Shown here in pieces: positions 16,790-33,583 of a stretch of DNA of 64,000 nt. Source of the DNA: Pararhodobacter sp. (lineage in GTDB: Bacteria; Pseudomonadota; Alphaproteobacteria; Rhodobacterales; Rhodobacteraceae); assembly GCF_034676075.1 (NCBI RefSeq), contig NZ_JAUCCQ010000003.1, forward strand, positions 56,034 through 120,033. The letters run 5' to 3'. Positions within the stretch are counted from its first letter, which is position 1. The number at the start of each line of letters is the position of its first letter. The notes under the pieces are model-generated. The model did no database searches and was not told the DNA's origin. It saw only the letters and a program-made list of their open reading frames with translations. The position numbers and the translations under genes are program-made.

Positions 16790-16864
16790 GATGCAAGACT
16801 GGCGGGCATATTGCACCACCCGCCGCACCCGTGTTCCATGCCCCCTCAGAAGGAAGGAACCAGC

Positions 16865-17670: not shown

Positions 17671-17688
17671 CGACGTATGCAGCATACC
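17671..17688 (+). promoter_or_regulatory. distal copy of the shared operator-like motif upstream of dctP
   Basis: CGACGTATGCAGCATACC matches the 25247-25264 copy at 14 of 17 core positions. Confidence 0.45.
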
Positions 17689-17914
17689 AAAAAAAGCGCG
17701 TCGCGCCGGTCTGCCACCATCGCTGCTCCTCGCCTGTCGCCACGGTATTCCTATCCGTCGTCGGCCCAGCGCGGCGCCTTGAGGAAGGTCCTATTTGGCG
17801 CGCATAATCCTTGCCTTGCTCAGGAAGTGAGCAGACGCTGAATTTCATGACATTCCCCTCCGCGATGCGCTCGACAAGTCAGGCAGGACCAAGAATCATC
17901 GCTTTCATCGCAAT

Positions 17915-17932
17915 TATCGTATACCGTATCCA
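17915..17932 (+). promoter_or_regulatory. proximal copy of the shared operator-like motif upstream of dctP
   Basis: TATCGTATACCGTATCCA lies about 56 nt before ATG 17989. Confidence 0.5.
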
Positions 17933-17988
17933 TAAGTAGCTCAAAGATCAAAACCGCTGCTTCCGCCCTTCAACAGGAGAGACCAACG

Positions 17989-18942
17989 ATGCAACACTGG
18001 AAGATCTATCTCGCCGGGCTCGCGCTCAGCACGGTGGCAGGGCTGGCCCATGCCGACGAGGTGACGCTGCGCGCCAGCGCCTTCGTCCCCACCTCGACCA
18101 CCTACGGCGTGCCGTTCCAGCTCTATGTCGACCGGGTGAACGAGACCGGCGCGGGCCTCGTGCAGATCCGCGTCGTGGGCGGGCCCGAGGCGATCCCGGC
18201 CAACGAGCAGCCGAACGCGCTGACGGCAGGCGTGCTCGACATCATTGCCACGCCCCCCTCCTACACCAAGGGCCAGTTCGTCGAGGCCGATGCGCAATCG
18301 CTGACCAACCTCTCCTTCGCCGAGCAGCGCGAAAGCGGCGCGGTCGACGCACTGTCGGAACTCGCGGTCGAACGGATGAACGCGCGCTACCTCACCGGCT
18401 ATGGCACGGGCGTGCCCTTCCACATCTATCTGACCGAACCGATTTCCTCGCTCGATGACCTCAGCGGCCAGCGCCTGCGGGGGCAGACCACCTACAATCT
18501 GCTGTTCAACGCGCTCGGCATCGACAGCACCGCCGTCGCCGCGCCCGAAGTCTTCACCGCGCTGGAGCGGGGCGTGATCAGCGGGGTCGGTTGGGCCTTC
18601 TGGGGGCTGGGCGATTTCGGCTGGGACCGCCTGATCACGACCCGCGTCGATCCCGGATTCTACAACGTGATCATCAACGTCCTGATCAACAACGACAGCT
18701 ACAACCGCCTGTCGCCCGAGCAGCAGGCTATCCTCAACGACGCCGCCGTCTGGTTCGAGGATTACATGGTCGAATGGTCGGCCGAGCGCACCGCACAGGA
18801 ATACGCGGCGCAGGAAGCGGCGGGTGTCACCGCCTTCGACGCCGGCCCTGAACTGGCCGAGCTCGCCACCCGCGTCTATTGGGAGGATCTGGAATCGCTC
18901 AGCCCGGAAATCGCCCGCCTGCGGCCGATGCTGGAACGCTGA
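17989..18942 (+). CDS. dctP: TRAP transporter substrate-binding protein (DctP family)
   Basis: Signal peptide ending AHADE. DctP-like sequence. AGGAGAG RBS. Confidence 0.85.
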   Translation: MQHWKIYLAGLALSTVAGLAHADEVTLRASAFVPTSTTYGVPFQLYVDRVNETGAGLVQIRVVGGPEAIPANEQPNALTAGVLDIIATPPSYTKGQFVEADAQSLTNLSFAEQRESGAVDALSELAVERMNARYLTGYGTGVPFHIYLTEPISSLDDLSGQRLRGQTTYNLLFNALGIDSTAVAAPEVFTALERGVISGVGWAFWGLGDFGWDRLITTRVDPGFYNVIINVLINNDSYNRLSPEQQAILNDAAVWFEDYMVEWSAERTAQEYAAQEAAGVTAFDAGPELAELATRVYWEDLESLSPEIARLRPMLER

Positions 18943-18964
18943 ACTAGCGGATAGCTAAAGGAAA

Positions 18965-18989
18965 GGGCCGGGGAAACCCGGCCCATTTT
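18965..18989. terminator. rho-independent terminator between convergent dctP and coxSL
   Basis: GGGCCGGG-GAAA-CCCGGCCC followed by ATTTTG. Confidence 0.7.
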
Positions 18990-19009
18990 GCTTGTCATCA
19001 AGCTGCGGT

Positions 19010-21832
19010 TCAGACGATGCCCTGCGCCGCAAGGATCCGTGCCGGTGAATAGGGTTGATGCGTGACCTGCGCGCCGAGCGGCCGCAGCGCGTCGTTGATC
19101 GCGCAGCGCAGTGCCGCCGGACCCGCCACCAGCCCCGCCTCGCCCACCCCCTTGGCCCCCAGCAGCGTCGCCCGGCTGGGGGTCGAGACATGGGCTATGG
19201 CGATATCCGGCATTTCGGCCGCCATCGGCACCAGGTAATCGGCCAGCGTTCCGGTTTCGAGCTGCCCGTCTGCCGAATAGACGCATTCCTCGTAGAGCGC
19301 CGCGCCGATCCCCTGCACCAGCCCGCCGCGCAACTGCTCATCAACCAGCAGCGGGTTCACCACCCGGCCGCAATCGTCGACCACCCAGGCGCCCAGCACA
19401 TCGACCAGCCCGGTGTCGGGATCGAGTTCCACCTCGACCGCCACCACGCCGTTCGACATGAGATAGGGCAAGGCGCCGGGCAGGAAGCTCTCTTCGACGC
19501 TGAGCGAAGGGACCACCGACAGCGGGATCTCGGTCGGGTTGTAGCGCGCAAGCCTCAGCACCCGATCCAGCGCGATCAGGGGCGAGCCGCTGGCATCGGT
19601 GACATCCTCGCCCACGATCCGCAGGGCCTCGGCCGGGCGCTGGGTCAGCGCCCCGGCGATGGCCAGAATCGAGGCTTTCAGTCCCCGGCTGGCCCTCAGC
19701 ACAGCCTCACCCCCCAGCGCCACCCCGCGCGAGGCCCAGGCGCCACCGCCGTAGGGATTGCGCGCCGTGTCGGTGGTGCCGAGGCTGATCTGGCCGACCG
19801 AGACACCCAGCTCCGCGGCAGCGATCTGGGCCAGGGCCGACAACGTCCCCTGCCCCTGATCGGTGACCGAGGTTTCGATCTTCACCCGGCCCCGTGCCTC
19901 GAGCGTCACTCGCGCGCTTTCCTGCGCTGCGACGGCCACGCCCAGCGGCCCGTAGAGACGCGAGCCAACCCCCGTCATCTCCACGAAAGCCGCCAATCCC
20001 AACCCTCGATGGATCCCCTCGGCCCTGAGCCGCCGATGGTCGGCCCGTTTCGCCGCCAACCCGGCCAGCCCTTCCAGCCTGTCCTGGCATTCTTGCAGCG
20101 ACAGCGGCTCGAATCTGAGCCCCAGCGGGCTGGTCGTATCCCCCGGCTCGGCAATATAGTTGCGCCGCCGGATCTCTTCGGGGCTGATACCCAGCGCATC
20201 GGCGGCAAGGTCCATGAGCTGCTCGGTGATCGCCGTGGCGATCGGCTGGCCGACGCCCCGATAGGCCCCGGTCGGCGCCTTGTTCTGCAAGACGCCGCGC
20301 AGCCGCCCCTTGAAGGCGGCGAAGGCATAGGGGCCGCCGACCATCGAGCAGGCCTGCAGGGCTTCCCCGACCGACCCGCGCGGGTACATGGAATAGGCAC
20401 CAAAACCGGCCAGCAGATCGACCTCGAAGCCAAGGATCCTTCCGTCGGCATCGACGGCGATGCGGGCATGGCCGGAGGCCTCGCGCGCATGGGCGTCGGC
20501 GGTGAAGGATTCCAGCCGGTCCGCCACCCATTTTACCGGGCGGTCCATCAGCGTCGCGACTGCAACGACTGCCATGTCGTCGGCATAGGCGTGCAGCTTC
20601 AGCCCGAAGGCCCCACCCACATCCGGCACGATCACCTGAACGGCGCCGGGATCGAGGCCCAGTTGCTGGGCATAGATCTCACGCTGCTGGAACGGCGCCT
20701 GATGCGACAGATGCACCCGGATCTCGCCCCGGGCCGGATCGAATTCGGCGATGATACCGCGCGGTTCCAGCGACATGCCGGTCTGCCGGGTGAAGGCGAA
20801 ATCCTGTTCCGCGATCACGGCGGCGCCCGCGAAGGCGGCCTCGGCATCGCCTACCGTGAAGACCTGATCCAGGATCAGGTTCGTTGCTTGGGCGGCGTGC
20901 ACGGTGGCCACGTCCGACAGCGCCGCTTCGGTGTCGGTCACGGCGGGAAGTTCCTCGAACTCGACCATCACCAGCTCGGCGGCATCCTCGGCCTCGGCCC
21001 GGCTTTCGGCCACCACCGCGACCACGGCCTCGCCCTGCCAGCATGTCTCACCCAGGGCGAGGCAGGGCTGGGGCGGAGAACTGTGGCCCTTCACCCCCGC
21101 AAGGCTGGTGACCCAGGGAGGGCTGACCCTGGCCAGATCCTCGCCGGTGAAACAGGCGAGGACACCGGGCATGGCCAGTGCCTCGGCCGTGTCGATGGAC
21201 AGGATCCGGGCATGGGCATGGGGGCTGCGCAGAAAGGCGACATGGGCGCAATGCGCCGGCGTGATGTCGTCCAGATAGCGCCCCGTCCCTGTCGCCGGTC
21301 GTCTTGCCGCGGCGCGCGGCAGGGGGGCGCCGATCCCCTCAGCTTTCGGGGCCTCGGGCGCACGACCCCGCGCCACGTCCTCGATGGCATCGACGATGGC
21401 GTGATAGCCCGTGCAGCGGCAGAGATTGCCGGAAATCGCATCGCGGATTTCGGCGCGCGAGGGTTCGGGGTTCTGATCGAGCAGTTCCACCGCCGTGAGC
21501 AGCATGCCCGAAGTGCAGAACCCGCATTGCAGGGCGTTGCGGGCGACGAAGGCCTCCTGCAGCGCATGGAGCCGCCCCTCGGCGGTCAGCCCTTCGATGG
21601 TCTGGACCTCGGCATCCTGAAGCTGCGCCACCTGCGTCAGGCAACCGCGCACAACCTGCCCGTCGACCATGACGTTGCAGGCACCGCAGACCCCGTGCTC
21701 GCAGCCCAGATGGGTGCCGGTCTGCCGCCGGTCATGGCGCAGATAATCGGCCAGATGCCCGCGGGTGCAGGCACCCACGCTCACCTCCTTGCCGTTCACA
21801 CGGAAATTCACGATCGGGGCGACATCATTCAT
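19010..21832 (-). CDS. xanthine dehydrogenase/CO dehydrogenase-family molybdo-hydroxylase with the [2Fe-2S] small subunit fused to the Moco large subunit
   Basis: N-terminus GCEHGVCGACNVMVDG...CGFCTSGM...CRCTGY carries the two 2Fe-2S clusters. A linker of about 25 aa leads into the large-subunit sequence (GRYLDDI...). Start at ATG 21832 overlaps the upstream stop as ATGA. Confidence 0.85.
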   Translation of the reverse strand: MNDVAPIVNFRVNGKEVSVGACTRGHLADYLRHDRRQTGTHLGCEHGVCGACNVMVDGQVVRGCLTQVAQLQDAEVQTIEGLTAEGRLHALQEAFVARNALQCGFCTSGMLLTAVELLDQNPEPSRAEIRDAISGNLCRCTGYHAIVDAIEDVARGRAPEAPKAEGIGAPLPRAAARRPATGTGRYLDDITPAHCAHVAFLRSPHAHARILSIDTAEALAMPGVLACFTGEDLARVSPPWVTSLAGVKGHSSPPQPCLALGETCWQGEAVVAVVAESRAEAEDAAELVMVEFEELPAVTDTEAALSDVATVHAAQATNLILDQVFTVGDAEAAFAGAAVIAEQDFAFTRQTGMSLEPRGIIAEFDPARGEIRVHLSHQAPFQQREIYAQQLGLDPGAVQVIVPDVGGAFGLKLHAYADDMAVVAVATLMDRPVKWVADRLESFTADAHAREASGHARIAVDADGRILGFEVDLLAGFGAYSMYPRGSVGEALQACSMVGGPYAFAAFKGRLRGVLQNKAPTGAYRGVGQPIATAITEQLMDLAADALGISPEEIRRRNYIAEPGDTTSPLGLRFEPLSLQECQDRLEGLAGLAAKRADHRRLRAEGIHRGLGLAAFVEMTGVGSRLYGPLGVAVAAQESARVTLEARGRVKIETSVTDQGQGTLSALAQIAAAELGVSVGQISLGTTDTARNPYGGGAWASRGVALGGEAVLRASRGLKASILAIAGALTQRPAEALRIVGEDVTDASGSPLIALDRVLRLARYNPTEIPLSVVPSLSVEESFLPGALPYLMSNGVVAVEVELDPDTGLVDVLGAWVVDDCGRVVNPLLVDEQLRGGLVQGIGAALYEECVYSADGQLETGTLADYLVPMAAEMPDIAIAHVSTPSRATLLGAKGVGEAGLVAGPAALRCAINDALRPLGAQVTHQPYSPARILAAQGIV

Positions 21833-22674
21833 GCGGCAAGGTCCATCAGCACCCGGCGGGCCAGCGCCCGCGCCTGGGCGCGTTTCTGCTCGGCCGAGCC
21901 CGCGAGGCTCGGCATCGGGTCGAGGTCGGCGGCGATGGCCCCGGCGAGGTCCGCCGCCAGAAGCGGCGTCAACCTCTGCCCGATGGCTCCCTCGGCGGCC
22001 GGGCACAGCACCGGCGCGGGTTCGCTGGCAAAGGCGGTCAGCGCGATACCGCGCACCACGCCCGCCTCGATCACCGCCCGGGCGACGAAGCCGGCACTGG
22101 CGAAATCGCCCCGGCGGCGCGTCACCTCGCCAAAGGCGAAATGCTCGTTCGCGCGGGCGCGCGGCCAGCGGATGGCGACGAGCATCTCTTCGGGGGCGCG
22201 CAGCGTGTCGTAGATGCCAAGGAAGAAGTCCCGCGCCGAAACCACCCGCTCGCCCGAGGCCGTGGCAAGCACCAGCTCGGCGCCCATCAGATGCGCCACT
22301 GCCGGCATCTCGCCTGCCGGATCGGCATAGGCGATGGAGCCCGCCGTCGTCCCCCGGTTGCGGATCGCCGGATGGGCGACATGCGGCATCACCTGCGCCA
22401 GCACCGGCACCTCGCGCGCGACGAGCGGGCTTTCCAGCACCGCGCGGTGGCGGACCAGCGGCCCGAAGACCAGGTGCCCGTCCTCGAGCGTGATCCGGTC
22501 CAGCCCGGGGATGCCATTGATGTCGACCAGCAGGGCGGGAGCATCGAGGCGCAAGTTCAGCGCCGCGCCAAGGCTCTGCCCGCCAGCCAGGATCCGCGCA
22601 TCCTCGGTCGCCAGCAGCGCCAGTGCCTCGGCCAGCGTCGCAGGACGGGCGATCTCGGTTCTCGGCGCCTTCAC
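21829..22674 (-). CDS. FAD-binding (CoxM-type) subunit of the molybdo-hydroxylase
   Basis: ILAGGQSLGAALNLRLDAPALLVDINGIPGL and NRGTTAGSIAYADP motifs. GTG start overlaps the dctM stop as GTGA. Confidence 0.8.
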   Translation of the reverse strand: MKAPRTEIARPATLAEALALLATEDARILAGGQSLGAALNLRLDAPALLVDINGIPGLDRITLEDGHLVFGPLVRHRAVLESPLVAREVPVLAQVMPHVAHPAIRNRGTTAGSIAYADPAGEMPAVAHLMGAELVLATASGERVVSARDFFLGIYDTLRAPEEMLVAIRWPRARANEHFAFGEVTRRRGDFASAGFVARAVIEAGVVRGIALTAFASEPAPVLCPAAEGAIGQRLTPLLAADLAGAIAADLDPMPSLAGSAEQKRAQARALARRVLMDLAA

Positions 22675-23987
22675 TTCATCAGCTCCGGCAACAGGCTGAC
22701 CAGCCCCGGGAACAGGATGAGCAACCCCATCACCAGGAATTCCAGCGCCAGGAACGGCAGGACCGCCTTGTAGACCGCCGTCACCCGCAGCTTTGGCCCC
22801 GCCACGCCCTGCATGACGAACAACAGAAGCCCGAAGGGCGGTGTGATGAGCGAAATCTCTAGCGCGATCAGCACGAGGACCCCGAACCACAGCGGGTCGA
22901 TCCCCGCTGCGCCGACGATCGGCATGAAGATCGGCAGGGTCAGCATCATCATCGACACCTGGTCCATGAAGCAGCCCAGGAAGACCAGCACCGCCAGCAT
23001 TCCCAGCAACAGCATCAAGGGACCGATGCCCGATGCCACGACCAGACGGCTGATCTCCTGCGTGGCGCCGGTGAAGGCCAGCACCTGCGAGAAGGTGCCC
23101 GAGGTACAGATGATGACTAGGATCATCGCCGAGAAGATCAGCGTCTCCTTCAGCGAATGCACCAGCATCGACAGGCTGAAACGCCGGTAGATCACCGCGG
23201 CGATGACCGTCGCCACCACGCCCAGGGCCGCGCTCTCGGTCGCGGTGGCGATGCCTGCGAACATTGAGCCCACGACACAGACGAAGATCAGCGCCAGCGG
23301 CAGGACGTTCACCAGCACCGGCCTGAGCCGCTCGCCCAGCGTCATCGTCTCGGTCTCGTAGATCGGTGCGAGGGACGGGTCCAAACGGCAACGCAGCATG
23401 ACATAGCCAAGAAACAGCACCGCCATCATGATCGCCGGCACGATCCCGGCAATCAGCAGGTCGTTGATCGAGATGGAGGCAAGGCTGCCGAGCATCACCG
23501 CCAGCCCCGAGGGGGGGATCAGCATGGCGATGCCGCCGACGGCCAGGATCGGCCCGACCGCCATGCTGTCATGATAGCCGCGCGCCTTCATCTGCGGGTA
23601 AAGCGACTTCCCCAGCACGCCCGCATTGGCAATCGTCGACCCCGAGAGCGATGAAAACAGCGTGCCCGACAGCACAGCAACGATCGACAGCCGCCCCGGC
23701 ACGCGGGAAATCAGCCGGTCGATGGCATCGATGGCACGCTGAGCGAGGCCGCTGTGCAGCATGATCTCGCCCATCAGCACGAAGAGGGGGATGGGCGCCA
23801 AGGAATATTGCGCCGCAGGCGAGCGCATGTTGCGCAGCATCTGCATGAGGCCGATGTCGCCGCCGAGGAACAGCCAGGCCCCGGCGATGTTGACGGCGAT
23901 GAAGGCAAAGACGATCGGCAGGCCCAGCATCAGAAGGGCGACGATACCGCCCAGCATCAGCACAAGGGCGAAGATCCATTCCGGCAT
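22671..23987 (-). CDS. dctM: TRAP transporter large permease
   Basis: 438-aa polytopic DctM-like protein. Confidence 0.9.
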   Translation of the reverse strand: MPEWIFALVLMLGGIVALLMLGLPIVFAFIAVNIAGAWLFLGGDIGLMQMLRNMRSPAAQYSLAPIPLFVLMGEIMLHSGLAQRAIDAIDRLISRVPGRLSIVAVLSGTLFSSLSGSTIANAGVLGKSLYPQMKARGYHDSMAVGPILAVGGIAMLIPPSGLAVMLGSLASISINDLLIAGIVPAIMMAVLFLGYVMLRCRLDPSLAPIYETETMTLGERLRPVLVNVLPLALIFVCVVGSMFAGIATATESAALGVVATVIAAVIYRRFSLSMLVHSLKETLIFSAMILVIICTSGTFSQVLAFTGATQEISRLVVASGIGPLMLLLGMLAVLVFLGCFMDQVSMMMLTLPIFMPIVGAAGIDPLWFGVLVLIALEISLITPPFGLLLFVMQGVAGPKLRVTAVYKAVLPFLALEFLVMGLLILFPGLVSLLPELMK

Positions 23988-23988
23988 C

Positions 23989-24480
23989 TCAGACCCCTTG
24001 CTGCGCGTGGAAGGGCGCGAGCAGCCGCCCGGCGAAGGTCAGCGCCATGAGCAGCGCCGCCAGCGGGATCTGCCATTGCAGCCACCAATCCATCAGCACG
24101 TAGTCACCAAAGACCATCTGCTGCGTCTGGTAAGAGCGCATCAGCACGCGCGTGCCCCAGATGCACAGGATCGCGCAGCAGGACAACCCGATCAGGTCGA
24201 TCAGCCGCTGCACGCCGCGGCGGACGGGCGGCGAAAAGCGCTCGAGAAAGACGTTGATCGACAGATGGGCATTGCGGCGCAGCAACCAGGGCGCCGTCAG
24301 GATAGCGATGCAGAAGAGCCCGATCTCGGAAAAGTCGATCAGGCCCCGGAATACGCCGAAACCAAGCCCCCGCCGGATCGACTCGGCGGCGATGGCGCAG
24401 GTCATGAGCGCGAGGATGATCCCCGACAGGACCGCAAGTGCGGTCACCACAAGGTCATAGAGGGCAATGGCTGTCTTCAT
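23989..24480 (-). CDS. dctQ: TRAP transporter small permease
   Basis: 163 aa with four hydrophobic helices. Start at ATG 24480 (MKTAIALYDL) inside ORF 23989..24738. Confidence 0.8.
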   Translation of the reverse strand: MKTAIALYDLVVTALAVLSGIILALMTCAIAAESIRRGLGFGVFRGLIDFSEIGLFCIAILTAPWLLRRNAHLSINVFLERFSPPVRRGVQRLIDLIGLSCCAILCIWGTRVLMRSYQTQQMVFGDYVLMDWWLQWQIPLAALLMALTFAGRLLAPFHAQQGV

Positions 24481-24712
24481 GTCTCGTCCTGGCTGGAGCC
24501 CCGTGGGGCGATCGCGCTCGAAAATCTCTGGAACCCGGCACGGCGCAGCGGAGCGATCCCCGCGAGACGGCACGCCTGAAAGGTCTGCGGCCGGGCGCAC
24601 CCGTCTCGCGGCAATAGAGGCCGGATTGGCCCCAGCGCACAAGGGGCGCTGCCGGGGGAAGACGGGCAAAGCGCCCCCTGCCCCGAAGGCGTCGCAGGGG
24701 CCCGCGCCCGGG

Positions 24713-25165
24713 TCAACCTGCGGGCGTTTCGGAGACAAGTTGCGCCTCGAGCCGGTCGAAGAACTCGCCCGACAGCTTGGTCGCCGTCCCTTGGATGAGC
24801 CGGGCGCCCAGTTGCGCGATCTTGCCGCCGACAGTCACGTCGACGCTGTAGTCGATCCGGGTTCCTGCCCCCTCCGGCGTCAGCGTGACCCGGGCCCGGC
24901 CCCTGGCGAAACCAGCGATGCCACCCTTGCCCGCGCCCTGCAGCACCATGCTGTCATTGGGATGCTCCTCGTCGAAGGTCACATCGCCCTTGAAGGTCGC
25001 TTTCACCGGGCCGATCTTCAGCGTAACCTCGGCCTCCATCCCGGCCTCGGTCGCGATCAGCGACTGGCAGCCCGGGATCGCTTGGCGCAGGATCTCGGGA
25101 TCGTGGACCGCGGCCCAGACATCGCGCCGGCTTGCCGCGACCAGCCGGGTGTCGGTAATTTCCAT
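24713..25165 (-). CDS. CoxG / SRPBCC family protein
   Basis: MEITDTRLVAASRRDVWAAVHDPEILRQAIPGCQSL...KIGPVKATFKG pattern of CoxG. GAGGAA RBS. Confidence 0.8.
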   Translation of the reverse strand: MEITDTRLVAASRRDVWAAVHDPEILRQAIPGCQSLIATEAGMEAEVTLKIGPVKATFKGDVTFDEEHPNDSMVLQGAGKGGIAGFARGRARVTLTPEGAGTRIDYSVDVTVGGKIAQLGARLIQGTATKLSGEFFDRLEAQLVSETPAG

Positions 25166-26607: not shown

Positions 26608-26633
26608 CGCGTTCTCCTCACACCTGGATTTAT

Positions 26634-26651
26634 CGTATTCCGTATACGTTA
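26634..26651 (-). promoter_or_regulatory. shared operator-like motif upstream of the ferredoxin reductase gene
   Basis: Read on the minus strand: TAACGTATACGGAATACG, about 26 nt before ATG 26607. Confidence 0.6.
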
Positions 26652-26685
26652 AATCTGTCAAGAAGGTGCAAGCCTGATCCGATAC

Positions 26686-27354
26686 TCAGCCTTGCCGCTG
26701 CTCGGCGTTTTCTGCCGCCCAGGTCTTGAAGGCCTCGCCTGCCTGCGTCAGCAGCATGGTCATCACCGCGCGCGCCTCGTCCTCATTGCCGGTGCCGATG
26801 GCCTGCGCGAGCTTCGCCATACCGTTGACAGAGACCCGGCGCATGTCCGGTCGGCGAAGGGTGTTTATCCGAATGAAATGGATGAAATCCTCATACCGCG
26901 CGATGGCCGCGACCAGCTGCCGGTTCGAGACATGCGAATAGATGTCGTCGCGGATCTTGCGATGTGCTTCGACATAGGCGTCACTCTCGCCCGTTTCGTC
27001 GAGCGTCTGGTGAATGCGGCCAGCCAGCGCGAAAAGCCGCCCAGCATCGGTCTCGCGCACCAGCTTGGCCACGGCATGCGGTTCCAGCAGCAGGCGAATT
27101 TCGATCACCTCGGAGATCTCTTCCGGCGTGAAATTCGGGAAACGGAAGCCCCGCGTCGCCTGAACCAGCAGCCCGTCGCGCACCAGCATGGCCAGCGCCT
27201 CGCGCACCGGCGTCCGCGAAACGCCCAGCTCCTGGGCCAGGTTGATCTCCTGGAACTTGGTGTCGGGATCGAACCCCCCTTCGGTAATCCGTGCCTTCAG
27301 CGTCTCGTAGACCTGTTGGCGGAGGTCGGCGACGCGCTGGATGGAATTCATCAT
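26686..27354 (-). CDS. GntR family regulator, FadR/FCD subtype
   Basis: LAQELGVSRTPVREALAMLVRDGLL HTH plus a helical FCD-like C-domain. Start at the MMNSIQ methionines. Confidence 0.85.
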   Translation of the reverse strand: MMNSIQRVADLRQQVYETLKARITEGGFDPDTKFQEINLAQELGVSRTPVREALAMLVRDGLLVQATRGFRFPNFTPEEISEVIEIRLLLEPHAVAKLVRETDAGRLFALAGRIHQTLDETGESDAYVEAHRKIRDDIYSHVSNRQLVAAIARYEDFIHFIRINTLRRPDMRRVSVNGMAKLAQAIGTGNEDEARAVMTMLLTQAGEAFKTWAAENAEQRQG

Positions 27355-27566: not shown

Positions 27567-27584
27567 TAACGTATACGGTAGACG
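27567..27584 (+). promoter_or_regulatory. shared operator-like motif upstream of the Rieske oxygenase operon
   Basis: TAACGTATACGGTAGACG, about 21 nt before ATG 27606. Confidence 0.6.
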
Positions 27585-27605
27585 TAATCCGCAGAGGAGT
27601 TACCC

Positions 27606-28889
27606 ATGACCGCCGCCCGGCTCCACGACCGCTACCCCGAACTCGGCACGGGTCCGATCCCCGTCGCGCCCTATATCGACCCGGCCTATTTCGAGCTTGA
27701 GAAGAAGTATCTCTTCAAGAACACTTGGCTGCATGTCGGCCGGGTCGAGGAATTGCCGAAGGTCGGCGACTACATGCTGCGCAATATCCCCGTGCTCGAT
27801 TCCGAGATCGTCATCGCCCGGGCGCGCGACAAGAAGCTCTACGCGTTCCACAATGTCTGCTCGCACCGACTGAACAAGATCGCCTATCAGCCGACCGGCA
27901 CGACGCGGAAATTCTTCTGCAAATTCCATGGCTGGGCCTATGACCTCGACGGCACGCTGACCGGCGTTCCCGACGAGAAGTCCTTCATGGACCTGGATAA
28001 ATCCTGCCTTGGGCTGACCCGGGTCTCGGTCGATACCTGGAACGGCTTCATCTTCATCAACGCCAATCCGGCGCCCGACGTCTCGCTCAAGGACTTCATG
28101 GAGCCGGTCTATGCCGGCTTCGAGACCTACCCGTTCGACAAGTTCACCGCCTGCTACGCCTGGAATGCGGTGGTCAATTGCAACTGGAAGGTCGCGCTCG
28201 ATGCCTTCCAGGAAACCTACCACGTCAACTACCTGCACGGCCGCTCGATCGCCTATGCGCTGCTGAAGGATGAGGACGGCAACCTGCACCCGATCGACGG
28301 TATCTGCGGTGACCTTCACCGCCGTCTGTCGATTGCCGGAGATCCGGATACCGTCTACGGAAATCCGCAAGCCGCGACCGCCGCCGCCGAGCAGGATGTG
28401 GGCGTCAACCAGACCGGCCACCGCATCGCCGCCAAGGCGCTGAAAGTGGCGCAGGGCGGCACCCGGTACGACCTGAGCGGCATCAAGCTGCCCGAGCTTC
28501 TGAACTGGACGAAACACCCGTCCTGGGCCTTCGACATCAACGTCGTCTTCCCGGATTTCTACCTGTCCTGCCGGCCGAACTATTTCCAGGCCTACAACTT
28601 CCGCCCGATCTCGCACGACAAGACGCTGTTCGAGGCGCGGGTCTACTACCCCGAGATGGTGACGGCGGGCGGGCGCTTCTATCAGGAATACATGAAGACG
28701 GCGCTGCGCGACGTCCTGCTCGAGGATCTGAGCACGCTGGAAACCACGCAAGCCGCCGCGGCGACCGGCGCCAAGCAGGAAATGATCATCCAGGATTTCG
28801 AGCTGATGGTGCGCCACCAGGCGGTGGCCATCGACCGGCTGATCGAAGAGGGGCTGCGCCGCGACGGCCAGCTCCAGGCCGCGGAATGA
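27606..28889 (+). CDS. Rieske non-heme iron oxygenase, alpha (catalytic) subunit
   Basis: Rieske motif CSHRLNK...CKFHGWAY. Mononuclear-iron motif NWKVALDAFQETYHVNYLH. AGAGGAG RBS. Confidence 0.9.
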   Translation: MTAARLHDRYPELGTGPIPVAPYIDPAYFELEKKYLFKNTWLHVGRVEELPKVGDYMLRNIPVLDSEIVIARARDKKLYAFHNVCSHRLNKIAYQPTGTTRKFFCKFHGWAYDLDGTLTGVPDEKSFMDLDKSCLGLTRVSVDTWNGFIFINANPAPDVSLKDFMEPVYAGFETYPFDKFTACYAWNAVVNCNWKVALDAFQETYHVNYLHGRSIAYALLKDEDGNLHPIDGICGDLHRRLSIAGDPDTVYGNPQAATAAAEQDVGVNQTGHRIAAKALKVAQGGTRYDLSGIKLPELLNWTKHPSWAFDINVVFPDFYLSCRPNYFQAYNFRPISHDKTLFEARVYYPEMVTAGGRFYQEYMKTALRDVLLEDLSTLETTQAAAATGAKQEMIIQDFELMVRHQAVAIDRLIEEGLRRDGQLQAAE

Positions 28890-29251
28890 GGAACCAGTCC
28901 ATGTCCAAACTCCCCCCTGAATTCGCCGCGCTCGAACCCTTTTCGGACTGGTGCCTGCCGCTGGAATCCCAGCGCAACCTGCGCCGCGTGAGCCTGGGTT
29001 TTGCCGAGATCAACGCCTTTGCCGAGGCGATGCTGCCCCAGGTCGAGGCGATCTGCGCCCATATCGACGCTCACCGCGCCGAGGATGGCAGCTACGACCG
29101 CGAAAGCCTAAACCTGTTCCACATGCTGCTGTCCCTGGCCGAAGTGGCCCCGGCCATCGAATCCTATGACCCCGAGGTCGAGGTGGTCGATGGCTACGAC
29201 ACCCGCAAGTTCGTCCCTGACGAGACGCACAAGCTGCGTCCCGCGATCTGA
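28886..29251 (+). CDS. hypothetical protein (121 aa) coupled to the oxygenase alpha subunit
   Basis: ATGA start/stop overlap with the alpha subunit. High GC3. No recognisable family. Confidence 0.6.
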   Translation: MRNQSMSKLPPEFAALEPFSDWCLPLESQRNLRRVSLGFAEINAFAEAMLPQVEAICAHIDAHRAEDGSYDRESLNLFHMLLSLAEVAPAIESYDPEVEVVDGYDTRKFVPDETHKLRPAI

Positions 29252-29261
29252 GGAAGCGTCC

Positions 29262-29681
29262 ATGCCGCAATGCCAGCTGTTCTCCTTCCGGGAGGGCCTC
29301 GACGAGGTCGTGCCCGGCGGGCTCAGGATGAAAGCCGTGGTGGGCCAGTCGCTCAGCGTCGGGGTCGTCAATTTCTGCCTGCCCGGCGGCCCCGGCATTG
29401 CCGCCAAAGCCCATGCCCATGGCGAGGAGGCGACGCTGCAGATCCGGGGAGGCTGCACCGTCAACCTCGGCTGGTCGGTCGAGGCACCGGAAGCCTCGGT
29501 CGAGCTTGAGGAAGGCATCGTCATGCTGATGCCCGCCGAACAGCCCCATTCCGGGATCAACCGCTTCGACTCCGAGGGCGAATGCCTGCGGCTGAACGTG
29601 GTGACGCCGCCGCGCCAGGAATACGGCGCCAGCGGCAACGCCAAACCCTTCTACCCGGGCGCACCGGAGGCCAAGGCATGA
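29262..29681 (+). CDS. cupin domain protein with intact metal-ligand motifs
   Basis: GAGGAAG RBS. HAHGEE...G and P..QPHSGIN match the two cupin motifs. Confidence 0.7.
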   Translation: MPQCQLFSFREGLDEVVPGGLRMKAVVGQSLSVGVVNFCLPGGPGIAAKAHAHGEEATLQIRGGCTVNLGWSVEAPEASVELEEGIVMLMPAEQPHSGINRFDSEGECLRLNVVTPPRQEYGASGNAKPFYPGAPEAKA

Positions 29682-29968
29682 GCTGCGAGATCCACGACAG
29701 CGGTCTGGGTGCCGCCCCCTTTGCCGTCCAGGGTGCCGCGCTCTCGGTCGCCATGGAACGTCTGCCGGTCGGTACATCGGCGGAGCTCTCGGCCCGGGGC
29801 GGGCCCGAGGAGATGGTCGCGCTGCTGGAAGGCAGCGCCACGCTCAGGGCCGACGATGGCGAGCATTCGCTGGTCCCCGGTACGGGCGTGCTGATCCCGG
29901 CTGGTTCGGCGCGCGAATGGACCATTCTGACCCCCGCCCTCGTGTACCGCGTCAGGGCCGCCGGATGA
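29678..29968 (+). CDS. small cupin-like protein lacking the His ligands
   Basis: ATGA overlap with the preceding gene. Beta-rich sequence ...EEMVALLEGSATLRADDGEHSLVPGTGVLIPAGSAREW with no HxH. Confidence 0.55.
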   Translation: MSCEIHDSGLGAAPFAVQGAALSVAMERLPVGTSAELSARGGPEEMVALLEGSATLRADDGEHSLVPGTGVLIPAGSAREWTILTPALVYRVRAAG

Positions 29969-30495
29969 GCGTCGAAGACCGCCTCGCCCGGCTCGAGGCC
30001 CATGCAGACATCGAGGCCGTGATGCAGGTCTACGCGGCGGCGGCGGATGCGAAGTACACCGCCCGCCACCGCAAGGCCGCGCCCGACCGGGTGGCCGAGG
30101 CCGCGCGCGCGCAGGCTGCCTGTTTCACCCCGGACGCCGAATGGCAGGCCGGCGGGTTCGGCGGCAGCCTTCACGGCCGCGTGGCGATCGAGGATTTCTT
30201 CCGTGAAGGCCCTTGGTCCTTTGCCACCCATCTCTATGCGGCGCCGCAGATTCAGGTCGCCGGCACCATAGCCGAAGCCCGCTGGCGCCTGTGGGAGCTG
30301 GGCGTCCGCGACGAGCGCAACCCTGCCATCCAGGGCCATGTCACGCTGTTGACGGGCGTGGTCCGCCAGAGCTGGCACCGTCTGCCCGAAGGCTGGCGCA
30401 TCGCCGTCATGGCCTTTGACCAGCTCCATGCCCTGACCCTTGCCACCGACACGGCGGCGCTCAGCTGCCTCATCCCCGCCGGAGACACCCCGTGA
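29965..30495 (+). CDS. NTF2-like (SnoaL_4-type) protein
   Basis: ATGA overlap. The N-terminal DRLARLEAHADIEAVMQVYAAAAD pattern is typical of SnoaL-like domains. Confidence 0.65.
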   Translation: MSVEDRLARLEAHADIEAVMQVYAAAADAKYTARHRKAAPDRVAEAARAQAACFTPDAEWQAGGFGGSLHGRVAIEDFFREGPWSFATHLYAAPQIQVAGTIAEARWRLWELGVRDERNPAIQGHVTLLTGVVRQSWHRLPEGWRIAVMAFDQLHALTLATDTAALSCLIPAGDTP

Positions 30496-31349
30496 CCGCA
30501 ACCTGCCCCGCGCCGACTGCCGCGCCCGACCCGGCGCCCGCTGCTGCCTTCCCCATCGCCGACACGGCCTGCCGCGTCGTCTCGAACGAGCCGGTGAACG
30601 CCGAATACCGCCTACTGCTGGCCGAGGCCGGGCCCACCGCGCTGACCGCCGAAGCGGGTCAGTTCTTCCAGCTCAAATGCCCGCCGACGACACAGGACCA
30701 CCCCTTCCTGCGCCGCCCGATGAGCGTCTATCGCATCGACCGGCAGAACGGGCAGATTGGCTTTCTCTACAAGGTGACCGGCAAGGGCACGCGCGGCCTG
30801 TCTACGCTGGTGCCCGGCGACAGGCTCGAGGCCATCGGTCCCCTGGGCCTGGGTTTCACCCTGCCCGCGGGGACAAAGCATGTCCTTCTGGTGGCCCGGG
30901 GCGTGGGGCTTGCCACGCTGACGCCGCTCGTGCAGATGGCCCGCGCTGCCGGGGCCGAGGTCACGGCGATCCTCAGCGCCCGCAATCCCGCCATGGTCAT
31001 GTCGCGCGACGAGCTGGCGGCGCAGGGCGCCCGGGTCATCGAGGTCACGGATACAGCGGGCGACAGCGACATGGCGCAGGTCGAGGCGCTGCTGCGGCGC
31101 CTTCACGCCGAACAGCCCTTCGATTTCGCCGCCACCTGCGGCTCGAACCGCCTGCTGCAACTGACCAAGGCGCTGAGCGCCGAATGGCAGATCGCCGGAC
31201 AGGCGGCCATGGAGGCCTTCATGGGCTGCGGCATGGGCATGTGCTATGCCTGCGTGCTGCCCGTGACCGCCCCCTCCGGCGAAACCATCTTCAAACGGGT
31301 CTGCCGCGAAGGACCTGTCTTCAGCATCGAGGAGGTCCAGTCATGGTAG
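30492..31349 (+). CDS. PyrK-like electron-transfer subunit (FAD/NAD-binding plus C-terminal 2Fe-2S) of a class-1B dihydroorotate dehydrogenase-type enzyme
   Basis: GTGA overlap. RRPMSVYRID FAD motif, LLVARGVGLATL NAD fold, and the Cys cluster CGMGMCYAC...CREGPVF. Confidence 0.8.
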   Translation: MTATCPAPTAAPDPAPAAAFPIADTACRVVSNEPVNAEYRLLLAEAGPTALTAEAGQFFQLKCPPTTQDHPFLRRPMSVYRIDRQNGQIGFLYKVTGKGTRGLSTLVPGDRLEAIGPLGLGFTLPAGTKHVLLVARGVGLATLTPLVQMARAAGAEVTAILSARNPAMVMSRDELAAQGARVIEVTDTAGDSDMAQVEALLRRLHAEQPFDFAATCGSNRLLQLTKALSAEWQIAGQAAMEAFMGCGMGMCYACVLPVTAPSGETIFKRVCREGPVFSIEEVQSW

Positions 31350-32284
31350 ACCTGTCCGTCCAGATCGGCAGCGTCTCGCTGCGCAACCCGGTGATGCCCG
31401 CCTCGGGGACCATCGCCGAAGGCTTTGCCGAGATCGTCGACCTCGGCCGGCTCGGTGCGATCGTGCTGAAGACCATCACCCCCGACATCCGCCAGGGCAC
31501 CCAGCCGCCGCGGGTGGCCGAGTTCACGGATGCCACGCTGTTTTCCATCGGCATCCCCTCGAAGGGGCCGGACTACCTGCTTGATTCCACCCTGCCGGTC
31601 TATGCCGATTTCGGGGTGCCGGTGGTGGCCAGCGTCTCGGCCGACAGCGCCGAGGATTTCGGCACGCTCGCGGCCTATATCTCGGCCCCCGGTGTTGCGG
31701 CGATCGAGGCCAATGTCTCGTGCCCGAACCTGCGCGCCCATGGCCAGGCCTTCGGCATGGACCCCGAGGCCACGGCCGAGGTGATCCGTGCCATGAAGGC
31801 CAGGACCGACACGCCGATCTGGGCCAAGCTCACCCCCAATGTCGGCGACATCGCCCAAATCGCCCGGGCCGCCGAGGCCGCTGGCGCCGATGCGCTGGTG
31901 GTGTCGAACGCGCTCTTGGGCATGGCTGTCGATGCCGAGAACATGCGCCCCCGACTTGGCAATGTGATTGGCGGACTAACGGGCAACGCGGTCAAGCCGA
32001 TCATCCTGCGCATGGTTCATCAGGTGGCGCAGGCGGTGTCGATCCCGATCATCGGCTGCGGCGGCATCGCCAACGGCGAGGATGCGGTGGAGTATCTGCT
32101 CGCCGGAGCGACTGCCGTGCAATTCGGCACCGTCAACTTCATCGAACCGGCGGCGATGGAGGAGGCCATCGCCTGGATCGAGGCCTATTGCCGCCGCCAT
32201 GGCGTCACCGAGGTCCGCGCCCTGACTGGGGCCATGAGCCCCCGCCACGACCAGAAGTCGCCCCTGCAAAGCGCCGTTCTCTGA
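31343..32284 (+). CDS. dihydroorotate dehydrogenase class-1B catalytic-subunit-like flavoenzyme (PyrD/PreA family)
   Basis: NPVMPASGT, active-site NVSCPN, TPNV, and FMN-binding IGCGGIANGEDAVEYLLAGATAVQFGT. 7-nt overlap with the pyrK-like gene. GAGGAGG RBS. Confidence 0.85.
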   Translation: MVDLSVQIGSVSLRNPVMPASGTIAEGFAEIVDLGRLGAIVLKTITPDIRQGTQPPRVAEFTDATLFSIGIPSKGPDYLLDSTLPVYADFGVPVVASVSADSAEDFGTLAAYISAPGVAAIEANVSCPNLRAHGQAFGMDPEATAEVIRAMKARTDTPIWAKLTPNVGDIAQIARAAEAAGADALVVSNALLGMAVDAENMRPRLGNVIGGLTGNAVKPIILRMVHQVAQAVSIPIIGCGGIANGEDAVEYLLAGATAVQFGTVNFIEPAAMEEAIAWIEAYCRRHGVTEVRALTGAMSPRHDQKSPLQSAVL

Positions 32285-32291
32285 GGATCCG

Positions 32292-32606
32292 ATGAGCGAC
32301 TGGACCGAACTTTGCGCCGCCGACGCCCTGCCCGAGGGCGAGGCAAAGGGCTTCACCATCGACGGGCTCAGGCTCTGTGCGGTCAATGACGGGACCGGGA
32401 TCTTCGTCGTCGCCGACCTCTGCACGCATGGGCAGGCCTATCTGTCCGACGGGTATTTCGACGCCGAGGAATGCGTCCTCGAATGTCCGCTGCACGGGGG
32501 GCTCTTCAGCTACCGCGATGGCTCGCCACAGGGCGACCCGGCGGAAAAGCCTGTTCGTTCCTTCCCCATCCGGGTCGAGGGCGGCCGCGTGATGGTGCAG
32601 CTATGA
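32292..32606 (+). CDS. Rieske-type [2Fe-2S] ferredoxin component
   Basis: 104 aa with CTHGQAYL...CPLHGGLF. Confidence 0.85.
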   Translation: MSDWTELCAADALPEGEAKGFTIDGLRLCAVNDGTGIFVVADLCTHGQAYLSDGYFDAEECVLECPLHGGLFSYRDGSPQGDPAEKPVRSFPIRVEGGRVMVQL

Positions 32607-33583
32607 ACCGGCGCGTCGTCATCCTCGGCGCCGGGGGCACCATCGCCATGGCGGGGGCGCATGCCTACGATTGGGTCGATTACGGCGATACCGGGATCAT
32701 CAATCCGGTGGACGAGATCGTCGCCGGCATGGATTTCGGGCTTCCCGGGGTGACGCTGGACCTGCGCAGTTTCCGCATGCTGCCCTCGACCGGGATCACG
32801 CCCGAGGACTGGCTGGATCTCGCGCAGACCATCGACACGCTCTGTCACACGGACGCCCCCGCCGGGATCGTGGTGACCCACGGCACGGCGACGATGGAGG
32901 ATACCGCCTTCTTCCTGCATCTCACGCAGCGGGTCGATGTGCCGGTGATCCTGACTGGCGCACAGCGGCCACCGAATACCGAAGGCTCTGACGCCGCCGC
33001 CAACATGCGCCACGCCATCGCGGTCGCCGCCAGTGGCACGCTGCCGGGCGGCGCCTATCTGGTGATGGACGCAAAGATCCTGCCCGCCGACCGCGCGTCC
33101 AAGACCGCGAACCACGCGCTCGATGCCTTCGAAGCGCCAGACGGCGGCCCCTTGGGAACGGTGAACGCCGACGGATCGCTGACCCTGTTCAATGCGCCGC
33201 TGCCCAGGCCGCATGTCTTCGCGCGGCCACGGGCGCCGCTGCCTCGGGTCGGTGTCGTCATCTCCTATCCAGGTGCCGGGGGCGAGGTGGTCGAGGCGCT
33301 GACCGCCTCGGGTGTTGCCGCATTGATCAGTGCCGGTTTCCCCCCCGGCCGCCCCACCCCCGGCGAGCGCGCGGCGATGCAGCGCGCCGCCGGGGCCGGG
33401 GTGCTGGTCGTGCAATCCTCGCGCGCGCCCCGGGGCCGGGTGCCCTTGCAGCGCTGGAATGAAGAGGCCGGGATCCTCTCGGGCGGCGGTCTGTCGCCCG
33501 CCAAGGCCCGGATCCTCGTGATGCTGGCCCTGGCCGAAGGGATGGCCCGGGACGAGATCCAGGACCTGCTTCTGTCCTGGTGA
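32603..33583 (+). CDS. L-asparaginase/glutaminase family amidohydrolase with an atypical active-site motif
   Basis: ATGA overlap. GAGGTIAM retains the Thr nucleophile. HGTATMEDTAFFL replaces the canonical HGTDT. SKT...LDAFEAP retains the Lys. Confidence 0.8.
   Translation: MNRRVVILGAGGTIAMAGAHAYDWVDYGDTGIINPVDEIVAGMDFGLPGVTLDLRSFRMLPSTGITPEDWLDLAQTIDTLCHTDAPAGIVVTHGTATMEDTAFFLHLTQRVDVPVILTGAQRPPNTEGSDAAANMRHAIAVAASGTLPGGAYLVMDAKILPADRASKTANHALDAFEAPDGGPLGTVNADGSLTLFNAPLPRPHVFARPRAPLPRVGVVISYPGAGGEVVEALTASGVAALISAGFPPGRPTPGERAAMQRAAGAGVLVVQSSRAPRGRVPLQRWNEEAGILSGGGLSPAKARILVMLALAEGMARDEIQDLLLSW

Follow-up and report, generated by a model that had tools for sequence, protein, structure and literature searches.

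Which regulator, if any, joins the transporter, hydroxylase and oxygenase genes of this Pararhodobacter locus into one system, and what would that system degrade? The stretch analysed here (64,000 nucleotides of contig NZ_JAUCCQ010000003.1, called the window throughout) carries between about 17.6 and 33.6 kb the genes of a tripartite ATP-independent periplasmic (TRAP) transporter, with dctP for its solute-binding protein, of a molybdenum hydroxylase with its accessory gene coxG, and of a Rieske oxygenase with its alpha-subunit gene rieA, a ferredoxin reductase, and a pair resembling the PyrK and PyrD subunits of dihydroorotate dehydrogenase (PyrDK). The original prediction, made from the letters alone, proposed that a five-fold repeated AT-rich motif links these units into one regulon of the GntR protein encoded among them. 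The best joint explanation of our results, which we consider likely, is that the protein encoded at 26686–27354 represses a small local regulon for the breakdown of a nitrogen-containing aromatic carboxylate.

A palindromic motif recurs at four promoters

The five 18-mers singled out by the original prediction are where it placed them and on the strands it gave, and the distances it measured to the start codons downstream (21, 26, 81, 56 and 300 nt) are correct. Their core is a 13-bp palindrome, GTATnC-n-GnATAC, consisting of two GTATAC-like hexamers with a 1-base spacer; the extended consensus is TAACGTATAC-G-GTATACGTTA, with partly symmetric flanks (TAAC...GTTA). The 10-mer TAACGTATAC had been said to be exact three times, and indeed there are exactly three copies in the window. 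A search of the window for the palindrome GTATNCNGNATAC with at most one mismatch returned five matches, all of them intergenic and all of them the sites already noted, against an expectation of 0.40 per window from dinucleotide-preserving shuffles; five matches were reached in none of 100 shuffles. Furthermore, the heptamer CGTATAC is six-fold enriched (6 observed, 0.94 expected). The argument that every copy has the same polarity relative to its gene has no weight, since the site is palindromic and identical polarity therefore carries no information; the opposite strand of the five sites scores nearly as high.

We then scored the window with a symmetrised out-of-sample matrix, built from 27 sites in 12 other genomes and from none of the window's own sites. 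Four sites scored between 25.6 and 34.3 bits, compared with simulated 64-kb sequences in which the maximum averaged 5.0 bits and the largest was 16.5 bits. The motif is real, with four solid sites; the fifth one proposed, at 17671–17691, is marginal and reached 9.5 bits. The sites are listed below, with no strand assigned.

17915–17935, operator upstream of dctP, TATCGTATACCGTATCCATAA, 25.6 bits
25244–25264, operator upstream of coxG, TTGTGTATGCTGTATACGTTA, 27.7 bits, no core mismatches
26631–26651, operator upstream of the reductase gene, TATCGTATTCCGTATACGTTA, 34.3 bits
27567–27587, operator upstream of rieA, TAACGTATACGGTAGACGTAA, 28.9 bits, 19–21 nt before the start codon
17675–17687, marginal fifth operator-like site, GTATGCAGCATAC, a perfect 6-1-6 palindrome with no core mismatches

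The positions of the sites suggest how they could act. The best promoter-like element of the region, TTGACA-18-TACGAT (26661 to 26632, minus strand), agrees with a sigma-70 promoter at 10 of 12 positions and lies ahead of the reductase gene; the 26631–26651 operator fills its spacer and its -10 hexamer, which is the classical position for a repressor. The dctP operator is about 20 nt downstream of a promoter-like TCGACA-17-AATCAT (17871–17899), and the rieA operator sits just ahead of the ribosome-binding site.

The fifth site lies 31 nt past the stop codon of pcaD, 300 nt ahead of dctP and 244 bp upstream of the dctP operator. Compared with strain D1-19, one half of the pcaD–dctP spacer has diverged, and in that half no conserved stretch is longer than a 17-nt block around this site; its core is kept against diverged flanks (L001). 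At this marginal level it may be an auxiliary site. A motif-like ATCCGGATACCGTCTACGGAA inside the rieA coding region (28342–28362) scores 11.8 bits, at the edge of the null distribution and above the fifth site, and is probably a chance match.

The motif travels with a GntR/FadR regulator

The regulator gene lies between the reductase gene and rieA.

26686–27354, minus strand, GntR/FadR-subfamily regulator, predicted repressor; Pfam GntR (E=1.8e-15) and FCD (E=5.9e-12)

Its product has the domain layout of the FadR subfamily, an N-terminal winged-helix GntR domain followed by an all-helical FCD effector domain, and the palindromic operator with a GT...AC core found at the four promoters is of the kind expected for this subfamily. 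To relate motif and regulator, we assembled 79 loci containing relatives of the Rieske alpha subunit, one genome per species, and mapped the window proteins onto them. Orthologues of the regulator with 48–62% identity adjoin rieA in L002–L010 and L012. In L001–L010, L012, L015 and L017, all of which carry a GntR orthologue, copies of the 13-mer stand shortly ahead of rieA and ahead of the reductase gene, with consensus copies such as ATAACGTATACGGTATACGTTAA present in L009.

Conversely, we took the five window sites alone for a second matrix and counted hits of at least 15 bits. Of the 14 loci whose GntR homologue reaches at least 38% identity, 13 gave such hits (L001 included), as did 2 of the 65 loci that have no such homologue, while 100 simulated 21-kb sequences gave none. 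In 11 of the 14 GntR-bearing loci, again with L001, a rieA-upstream site falls within 150 nt. This is the weight-matrix scan that the original prediction had called for, carried out on the window and the related loci. The site also follows the genes when a locus is rearranged: it goes with dctPQM in L006, and with a unit of reductase, EthD-like and Amdase-like genes in L002, L003 and L012. In L015 sites accompany genes for a GMC oxidoreductase and an aldehyde dehydrogenase, and in L017 a thiolase-like gene and genes for a CoA ligase, a major facilitator superfamily (MFS) transporter and an aldehyde dehydrogenase.

Might the repeats instead be chance AT-rich promoter elements, or the sites of some other regulator such as the neighbouring LysR protein? 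They are AT-rich islands in GC-rich DNA, placed where promoters are expected, and at one promoter the -10 region overlaps the site. However, the exact palindromic layout is kept at orthologous positions in 12 other genomes with GC contents of 58–72%, the sites move with their transcription units, and the motif is absent from the operon versions of Burkholderiales, Pseudomonas and Paenalcaligenes, which have a TetR gene instead of the GntR gene. We regard this explanation as improbable. The co-occurrence of motif and regulator, together with a site that moves with its units, is what one would expect if a transcription factor and its operator were involved. Comparison of the sequences gives good support to the view that the four units, which include the TRAP, molybdenum hydroxylase and Rieske/PyrDK genes as originally proposed, would share the regulon of the local GntR protein.

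In the mechanism that we favour, a GntR/FadR dimer would most likely bind the extended palindrome through its two GTATAC-like hexamers, one base apart. The four strong operators would overlap or directly follow the promoters of four transcription units, namely dctP, the coxG unit, the ferredoxin reductase gene and a nine-gene operon from rieA to an asparaginase gene. Release of the repressor would be brought about by an effector, which is presumably either the substrate or an intermediate formed early in the pathway. The predicted regulon offers one repressor, four promoters and a clear consensus for testing.

Some observations weigh against this reading. A simple promoter scan detected no promoter-like element for rieA or coxG, and the score of the fifth site is within the null range. 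A 232-nt GC-rich gap (24481–24712) separates coxG from the probable start of dctQ, the TRAP small permease gene. No promoter-like element, terminator-like element or operator was found in this gap, and the coxG operator would control the genes beyond it only if the coxG transcription unit continues, as is probable, into dctQ, dctM, coxM and coxS/L. Finally, the motif scan covered the 64 kb and the related loci, so that the regulon may be larger, and the motif less specific, than it appears here.

The regulatory design resembles that of DipR

A FadR-type repressor acting on GTATAC palindromes is a design that is already known, and the window is a further example of it. DipR of Alcaligenes faecalis JQ135 is a GntR/FadR repressor with six GWATAC sites in the dipicolinate (dip) cluster and is released by dipicolinate; DNA binding requires its residues R63 and R67, and its response to the effector requires H196 and H218 (Jiang et al., Nucleic Acids Res 2024, PMC11472048). 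Both proteins belong to the FadR subfamily and carry an FCD domain, both clusters have several operators that overlap promoters, and the recognition helix LGVSRxPVREAL is identical, with R63 and R67 aligned to R47 and R51 of the window regulator. Four of the five window sites contain GTATAC or GAATAC, and the fifth has GCATAC/GTATGC. These similarities raise the question of whether the cluster is a version of the dip cluster and its regulator DipR itself, given that DipR likewise serves a pyridine-dicarboxylate cluster through multiple GWATAC operators (PMC11472048).

We retrieved an Alcaligenes-type dip locus (L084) from a metagenome collection by means of the published 23-nt footprint. Its genes encode DipR, a TauE permease, a 505-aa unknown protein, a gamma-glutamyltranspeptidase, a 244-aa Haem_oxygenas_2 protein (DipD), an aldehyde dehydrogenase, an HbpS-like protein and a Fer2/FAD/NAD reductase. 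When all proteins of the window cluster were compared with this locus by tblastn, only the regulator matched, at 27–28% identity, and the Pfam content of L084 shares nothing with the structural genes of the window, in which homologues of DipA and DipC–DipF were not found. The two clusters have only the regulator family and the GTATAC operator in common, and GWATAC-containing operators alone do not define membership of the dip group. Furthermore, the regulators are 28% identical, the effector-response residues H196 and H218 of DipR are replaced by Met and Leu, the window operators are more symmetric and have CG and TAA flanks, and the homologues of the window regulator retrieved by shared words included no DipR-like protein. 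We reject dip membership, which we hold to be highly improbable. By analogy, the window cluster very probably works like dip at the regulatory level.

The comparison also bears on DipR. At its sites in L084 (2765, 3552, 3643, 6737, 10860 and 10953) a second, weaker hexamer stands one base upstream, as in GTAGAC-G-GTATAC and GTATAA-G-GTATTC. Read as two hexamers, these sites suggest that the published 6-bp DipR motif is probably half of a 13-bp site, which would refine the description of this operator.

Genes of the units under predicted control

Genes were called with Pfam and NCBIfam searches and inspection of start codons. The source organism is close to Pararhodobacter aggregans, its Rieske alpha subunit being 99% and its GntR protein 100% identical to P. 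aggregans entries. On the minus strand the order is coxG, the 232-nt gap, dctQ, dctM, coxM and a fused coxS/L, and on the plus strand the nine genes of the rieA operon overlap or nearly touch.

17989–18942, plus strand, dctP, TRAP solute-binding protein; Pfam DctP, best solved relative 4mnc/4mni (E=1.7e-49)
19010–21832, minus strand, fused [2Fe-2S] and molybdopterin subunits, coxS/L type; Pfam Fer2_2, Ald_Xan_dh_C, MoCoBD_1, MoCoBD_2, ATG at 21832
21829–22674, minus strand, coxM-type flavin adenine dinucleotide (FAD) subunit; Pfam FAD_binding_5, CO_deh_flav_C, GTG start at 22674
22671–23987, minus strand, dctM, TRAP large permease; Pfam DctM (E=5.5e-78)
23989–24480, minus strand, dctQ, TRAP small permease; Pfam DctQ, probable ATG at 24480
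24713–25165, minus strand, coxG, SRPBCC accessory protein of molybdenum hydroxylases; Pfam COXG (E=2e-29)
25384–26608, minus strand, ferredoxin-NAD(+) reductase of the Rieske system; Pfam Pyr_redox_2, Reductase_C, NCBIfam HcaD/AndAa-like
27606–28889, plus strand, rieA, Rieske oxygenase alpha subunit; Pfam Rieske, Ring_hydroxyl_A
28901–29251, plus strand, small all-helical protein of 116 aa, no known family; no Pfam, NCBIfam or PDB sequence match
29262–29681, plus strand, small cupin-like protein; weak Cupin_2 match in the L080 orthologue, conserved across loci
29678–29968, plus strand, small cupin; weak Cupin_2 match, stronger in orthologues
29965–30495, plus strand, NTF2-like SnoaL_4 protein; Pfam SnoaL_4 (E=7e-13)
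30492–31349, plus strand, PyrK-like FAD/[2Fe-2S] electron-transfer subunit; Pfam DHODB_Fe-S_bind
31343–32284, plus strand, PyrD-like flavin mononucleotide (FMN) enzyme, class 1B dihydroorotate dehydrogenase type; NCBIfam PRK07259
32292–32606, plus strand, Rieske-type ferredoxin; Pfam Rieske, Rieske_2, NCBIfam AndAb-like
32603–33583, plus strand, L-asparaginase-fold amidohydrolase; Pfam Asparaginase, Asparaginase_C, PDB L-asparaginases (E=5e-42)

The gene list of the original prediction calls for some corrections. The gene beside coxG, which it took for an FAD subunit, is dctQ, and its amidohydrolase at 32603–33583 does not belong to the amidohydrolase superfamily but is an amidase with an L-asparaginase fold. 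Its gene list was also incomplete, since it missed a fourth small protein (28901–29251) as well as dctQ and dctM inside the cox unit. All three TRAP components, P, Q and M, are present and are split over two transcription units; orthologues of dctP with 47–65% identity occur in L005–L010 and L080. A longer open reading frame for dctQ, starting at a TTG at 24738, is probably an over-extension.

The Rieske oxygenase has an all-helical companion

The alpha subunit has the CxH...CxxH motif and a 2-His-1-carboxylate iron site, and residues C85, H87, C105, H108, H206 and H211, together with conserved Asp residues, are invariant in 15 homologues. A dedicated Rieske ferredoxin and a reductase complete a three-component system. 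We found 442 homologues of the alpha subunit at E<=1e-30, every one of them with a generic name. There is no Pfam match to the canonical beta subunit (Ring_hydroxyl_B) in the cluster, and the SnoaL_4 NTF2-like protein is not adjacent to alpha.

The gene that does follow rieA encodes the 116-aa protein, and it does so always (L002–L079), even where identity drops to 35–43%. Its relatives are all annotated as hypothetical and lack a Pfam family. An AlphaFold model built with 35 sequences has a predicted local distance difference test score of 86 and four helices, and a Foldseek search against the PDB gave no match better than E=3; sequence searches of the PDB likewise gave nothing useful for this protein, the small cupin or the SnoaL-like protein. 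Because the model is all-helical rather than NTF2-like and has no fold match, we reject the idea that this protein is a Rieske beta subunit. Going by the model and the constant position of the gene, it may be a new oxygenase partner.

The molybdenum hydroxylase and the PyrDK-like pair may point to a ring nitrogen and a carboxylate

The hydroxylase contains the [2Fe-2S], FAD and molybdopterin-binding modules of the xanthine oxidase family. Its molybdopterin part aligns over the full length with the large subunit of quinoline 2-oxidoreductase (Qor; 1t3q_B, E=8e-134), a match much better than those to carbon monoxide (CO) dehydrogenases or xanthine dehydrogenases, and its active-site loop, GAYRGVGQP, is as in Qor. 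The two enzymes also share the conserved catalytic Glu region, separate FAD and [2Fe-2S] modules and the presence of a CoxG accessory protein. In contrast to Qor, the FeS and molybdenum subunits are fused in the window, the genes are interleaved with those of the TRAP permease, and the enzyme occurs only in some lineages of the core cluster. At about 40% identity the likeness to Qor does not define the substrate. The active-site loop of form I aerobic CO dehydrogenase is AYxCSFR; this motif is absent and the NCBIfam CO dehydrogenase models score far below their cut-offs, and an aerobic CO dehydrogenase was therefore rejected.

The PyrD-like protein passes the class 1B model PRK07259 (329 bits, cut-off 269), whereas its PyrK-like neighbour stays below the cut-offs of the NCBIfam PyrK models (132 against 314 and 130 against 270). 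Like the Lactococcus lactis enzyme (1ep1), the pair would be a two-subunit FMN and FAD/[2Fe-2S] enzyme, and the Lys, the NxSCPN motif with the catalytic Cys and the downstream Asn are kept. Unlike that enzyme, it is encoded in a catabolic operon and its substrate loop is altered: F-S-I-G-I-P-S stands in place of the N-x-x-G-x-x-N of class 1B dihydroorotate dehydrogenases. In structures of the Lactococcus enzyme the second Asn of this loop binds the pyrimidine ring of orotate, and alphaproteobacteria normally use a class 2 enzyme for pyrimidine synthesis. Across about 50 orthologues the altered loop, LFSIGIPSKG, is all but invariant: L011 and L015 alone depart from it, at other positions, and in no orthologue does Asn return at the F/W and S positions. 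The replaced loop makes orotate itself unlikely and points to a substrate that is orotate-like but different. Judging from these residues, we infer a ring C=C next to a carboxylate and a carbonyl, with a bulkier or less polar edge, and the protein looks like a member of a distinct catabolic subfamily of the dihydroorotate dehydrogenase fold.

The cluster is widespread and exists in variants

The enzyme families of the catabolic gene set are known ones, in an unusual combination, and the set is widespread; the cluster spans hundreds of genomes and metagenomes of proteobacteria from soil, plant, marine and clinical sources, in all of which its proteins are named generically. Alpha-, beta- and gammaproteobacteria have a core in common: the Rieske alpha subunit and ferredoxin, the helical and NTF2-like proteins, two cupins, the asparaginase and, in most loci, the PyrDK-like pair. 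The reductase gene lies within the core operon or close to it. With the core there is always a carboxylate transporter, namely TRAP in Paracoccaceae and Paenalcaligenes, MFS in most Burkholderiales and an OprD porin in Pseudomonas. In the Paracoccaceae loci L005 and L007–L009, a single operon extends beyond the asparaginase gene into dctQM, coxM and coxS/L, and dctP comes after the reductase gene, while the Rieske operon of Paenalcaligenes points away from dctPQM and pyrKD in a divergent arrangement. The original prediction had proposed a search for neighbourhoods in which a fused coxSL, a PyrK/PyrD-like pair and this Rieske alpha subunit occur together; the PyrDK pair does accompany the alpha subunit in most loci, in all three proteobacterial classes, but the molybdenum hydroxylase is found only in some lineages.

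Genes for Amdase/EutA-like and EthD-like proteins are present in most loci of the series L002–L059 and missing from most loci with coxG or the molybdenum hydroxylase, with exceptions such as L006 and L015. Loci without the hydroxylase or coxG usually carry this other gene set, so that the pathway exists in two variants, and the two sets may be alternative branches. The window holds no copy of the Amdase-family gene. A role for that gene as a maleate isomerase in a maleamate route is unsupported: its best model is EutA-like and below cut-off, and maleate isomerases score no better than arylmalonate decarboxylases.

In Paenalcaligenes hominis (L080 and L081), a phage-type integrase, phage-like genes or transposase fragments border the TetR version of the cluster, which includes the EthD-like gene; this suggests horizontal movement.

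Comparison with described catabolic pathways

The original prediction held that the gene set does not match the nicotinate (nic), picolinate (pic), trigonelline (tgn) or Rut pathways, and this is borne out. The hallmarks of these routes and of reductive pyrimidine breakdown are a NicC-type flavin monooxygenase, NicX, NicD and NicF; PicB and PicC; TgnB–F; RutA–F; and dihydropyrimidinase and ureidopropionase. These signature enzyme domains are absent among the genes at 17.6–33.6 kb, and all that is shared with nic, pic, tgn and Rut is generic, such as a molybdenum hydroxylase or a Rieske alpha subunit.

The iac route of Pseudomonas putida 1290 and others, in which a Rieske oxygenase, small cyclase/NTF2-type proteins and an amidase take indole-3-acetic acid, a benzo-fused N-heterocyclic carboxylate, to catechol and on to ortho cleavage (PMC11373566), resembles the cluster in its logic only, with apparently unrelated enzymes. 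Pfam finds in the window cluster no domains of IacA (an acyl-CoA-dehydrogenase-like flavin monooxygenase), IacE (a short-chain dehydrogenase), IacG (a flavin reductase) or IacH (an amidase-signature enzyme); its amidase has the asparaginase fold, and its regulator is of the GntR type (TetR in other loci) rather than MarR as in iac.

In the open-access literature we found no description of a set combining a Rieske oxygenase, a dihydroorotate dehydrogenase and an asparaginase, nor of the maleate isomerase/TRAP/cupin combinations, nor did searches via homarine yield one, in agreement with the earlier view of a candidate undescribed system. The open-access literature on quinoline-4-carboxylate turned up only an unrelated pterin/lumazine cluster, and that on kynurenate only reviews, one of which, from 2024, cites 1961 biochemistry alone.

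Substrate and proposed pathway

What, then, would this regulon degrade? Genes for the cleavage of catechol-type rings lie beside it.

9173–10306, 4-oxalomesaconate tautomerase, a ring-cleavage gene beside the regulon
12697–13932, plus strand, intradiol (catechol-type) dioxygenase; NCBIfam
14054–15217, plus strand, muconate cycloisomerase; NCBIfam
16748–17644, pcaD, 3-oxoadipate enol-lactonase

The motif scan found no operator among these genes (9173–17644). The stretch also contains a glutathione S-transferase gene and a LysR regulator gene. In other genomes an intradiol dioxygenase gene comes directly after the asparaginase gene (L041, L042, L044, L048 and L049 of Cupriavidus/Ralstonia, L036 of Paraburkholderia and L037 of C. 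pinatubonensis); in L015, a gammaproteobacterial metagenome assembly, it is found together with catBC and pcaD, and it lies some kilobases away in Rhizobium puerariae (L012) and in Paracoccaceae (L005, L007–L009 and the window). The dioxygenase, cycloisomerase and pcaD of the window probably belong with the cluster as its downstream genes.

The gene set argues for an aromatic carboxylate with nitrogen in the ring or in an amide. The original prediction had in mind a carboxylated N-heterocycle that is opened and deamidated. This is still plausible as an inference, but the evidence shifts toward a benzo-fused compound: a Qor-like molybdenum enzyme together with recurrent intradiol dioxygenases suggests a substrate with a benzene ring that ends as catechol. 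We think that the most likely substrate class is that of benzo-fused N-heterocycles, namely quinoline-, quinolone- or indole-type carboxylates, and that a simple pyridine carboxylate is less likely.

For such a compound, the following order of steps can be proposed. The TRAP transporter would take up the carboxylate and, in the Paracoccaceae variant, the Qor-like molybdenum enzyme would hydroxylate the hetero-ring next to the ring nitrogen. The PyrDK-like pair would then reduce or oxidise the C=C next to the carboxylate. Dioxygenation of the carbocycle by the Rieske enzyme at the nitrogen-bearing carbon would let the nitrogen leave as a primary amide, the asparaginase-fold enzyme would hydrolyse this amide, and the resulting catechol would undergo intradiol cleavage.

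Several findings weigh against this assignment. The molybdenum hydroxylase is limited to Paracoccaceae and one sphingomonad, with Herbaspirillum-type loci judged from coxG only. The PyrDK pair is absent from Pseudomonas and from some Cupriavidus loci. The intradiol genes of Paracoccaceae are several kilobases off and carry no operator, and the Pfam and NCBIfam assignments include no dihydrodiol dehydrogenase in the cluster.

Two other substrate classes have to be weighed against these data. One is a carboxylated N-heterocycle with a single ring, opened to an asparagine- or succinamate-like amide; among pyridine and pyrimidine carboxylates, a hydroxypicolinate or an orotate analogue would be examples. 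This would fit a PyrD-like protein that passes the class 1B model and keeps the catalytic Cys and Lys, a hydroxylase of the N-heterocycle clade, TRAP uptake, which implies a carboxylate, and the presence of an asparaginase and a EutA-like racemase-family gene, both suited to aspartate-skeleton chemistry. On the other hand, the pyrimidine-holding loop is replaced by FSIGIPS in essentially all orthologues, and the three-component Rieske system with its recurrent intradiol dioxygenase, cycloisomerase and enol-lactonase genes points to a benzene ring; we consider such a substrate possible but unlikely. The other class is a non-heterocyclic aromatic amide or anilide carboxylate, from which the Rieske enzyme would release catechol and an asparagine-like amide, with the molybdenum hydroxylase and PyrDK as lineage-specific additions. 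Indeed, what all lineages share is a core of Rieske system, small proteins and asparaginase, PyrDK and the hydroxylase are each missing from some loci, and the iac route shows that a Rieske oxygenase and an amidase can yield catechol by the same logic (PMC11373566). However, PyrDK is present in most loci of three proteobacterial classes with a family-specific loop, and in Paracoccaceae the hydroxylase genes share either the operator or the operon itself, which makes an amide or anilide quite unlikely in our judgement.

Returning to the benzo-fused class, a more specific proposal is that the regulon and its TetR-controlled counterparts constitute an undescribed aerobic route for a benzo-fused N-heterocyclic carboxylate, comprising ring saturation or desaturation by a dihydroorotate dehydrogenase-like enzyme, nitrogen expulsion by a Rieske oxygenase with a helical partner, hydrolysis of the resulting primary amide by an asparaginase-fold enzyme and intradiol cleavage of a catechol. 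We offer this tentatively and consider it rather doubtful. Candidate substrates may include kynurenate or quinaldate, quinoline-4-carboxylate, 2-quinolone-4-carboxylate and oxindole-acetate-type breakdown products of auxin. In older biochemical work, 2-oxo-1,2,3,4-tetrahydroquinoline-4-carboxylate and 2,3-dihydroxyphenylsuccinate are said to be metabolites of quinoline-4-carboxylate. We know of no assignment of genes to kynurenate degradation; kynurenate itself is a low-probability candidate here, since the cluster has no dihydrodiol dehydrogenase and the asparaginase would have no obvious role. If the undescribed route is real, it would supply genes for activities reportedly known only biochemically since the 1960s to 1990s, and it might do so for orphan quinoline-carboxylate or kynurenate degradation activities. 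Working out the pathway could then also establish that the dihydroorotate dehydrogenase fold serves in catabolism, that an amidase of asparaginase fold takes part in aromatic degradation and that Rieske oxygenases have a new kind of small partner protein.

Genes downstream of the regulon

Because no operator was found at 33797–39388, the genes that follow the asparaginase gene probably form a separate system. They comprise a TAXI-type TRAP system with a fused QM permease (33797–35719) and its binding protein (35716–36903), a second Rieske alpha subunit (37051–38355, minus strand) and a PaaE/GbcB-like reductase (38444–39388).

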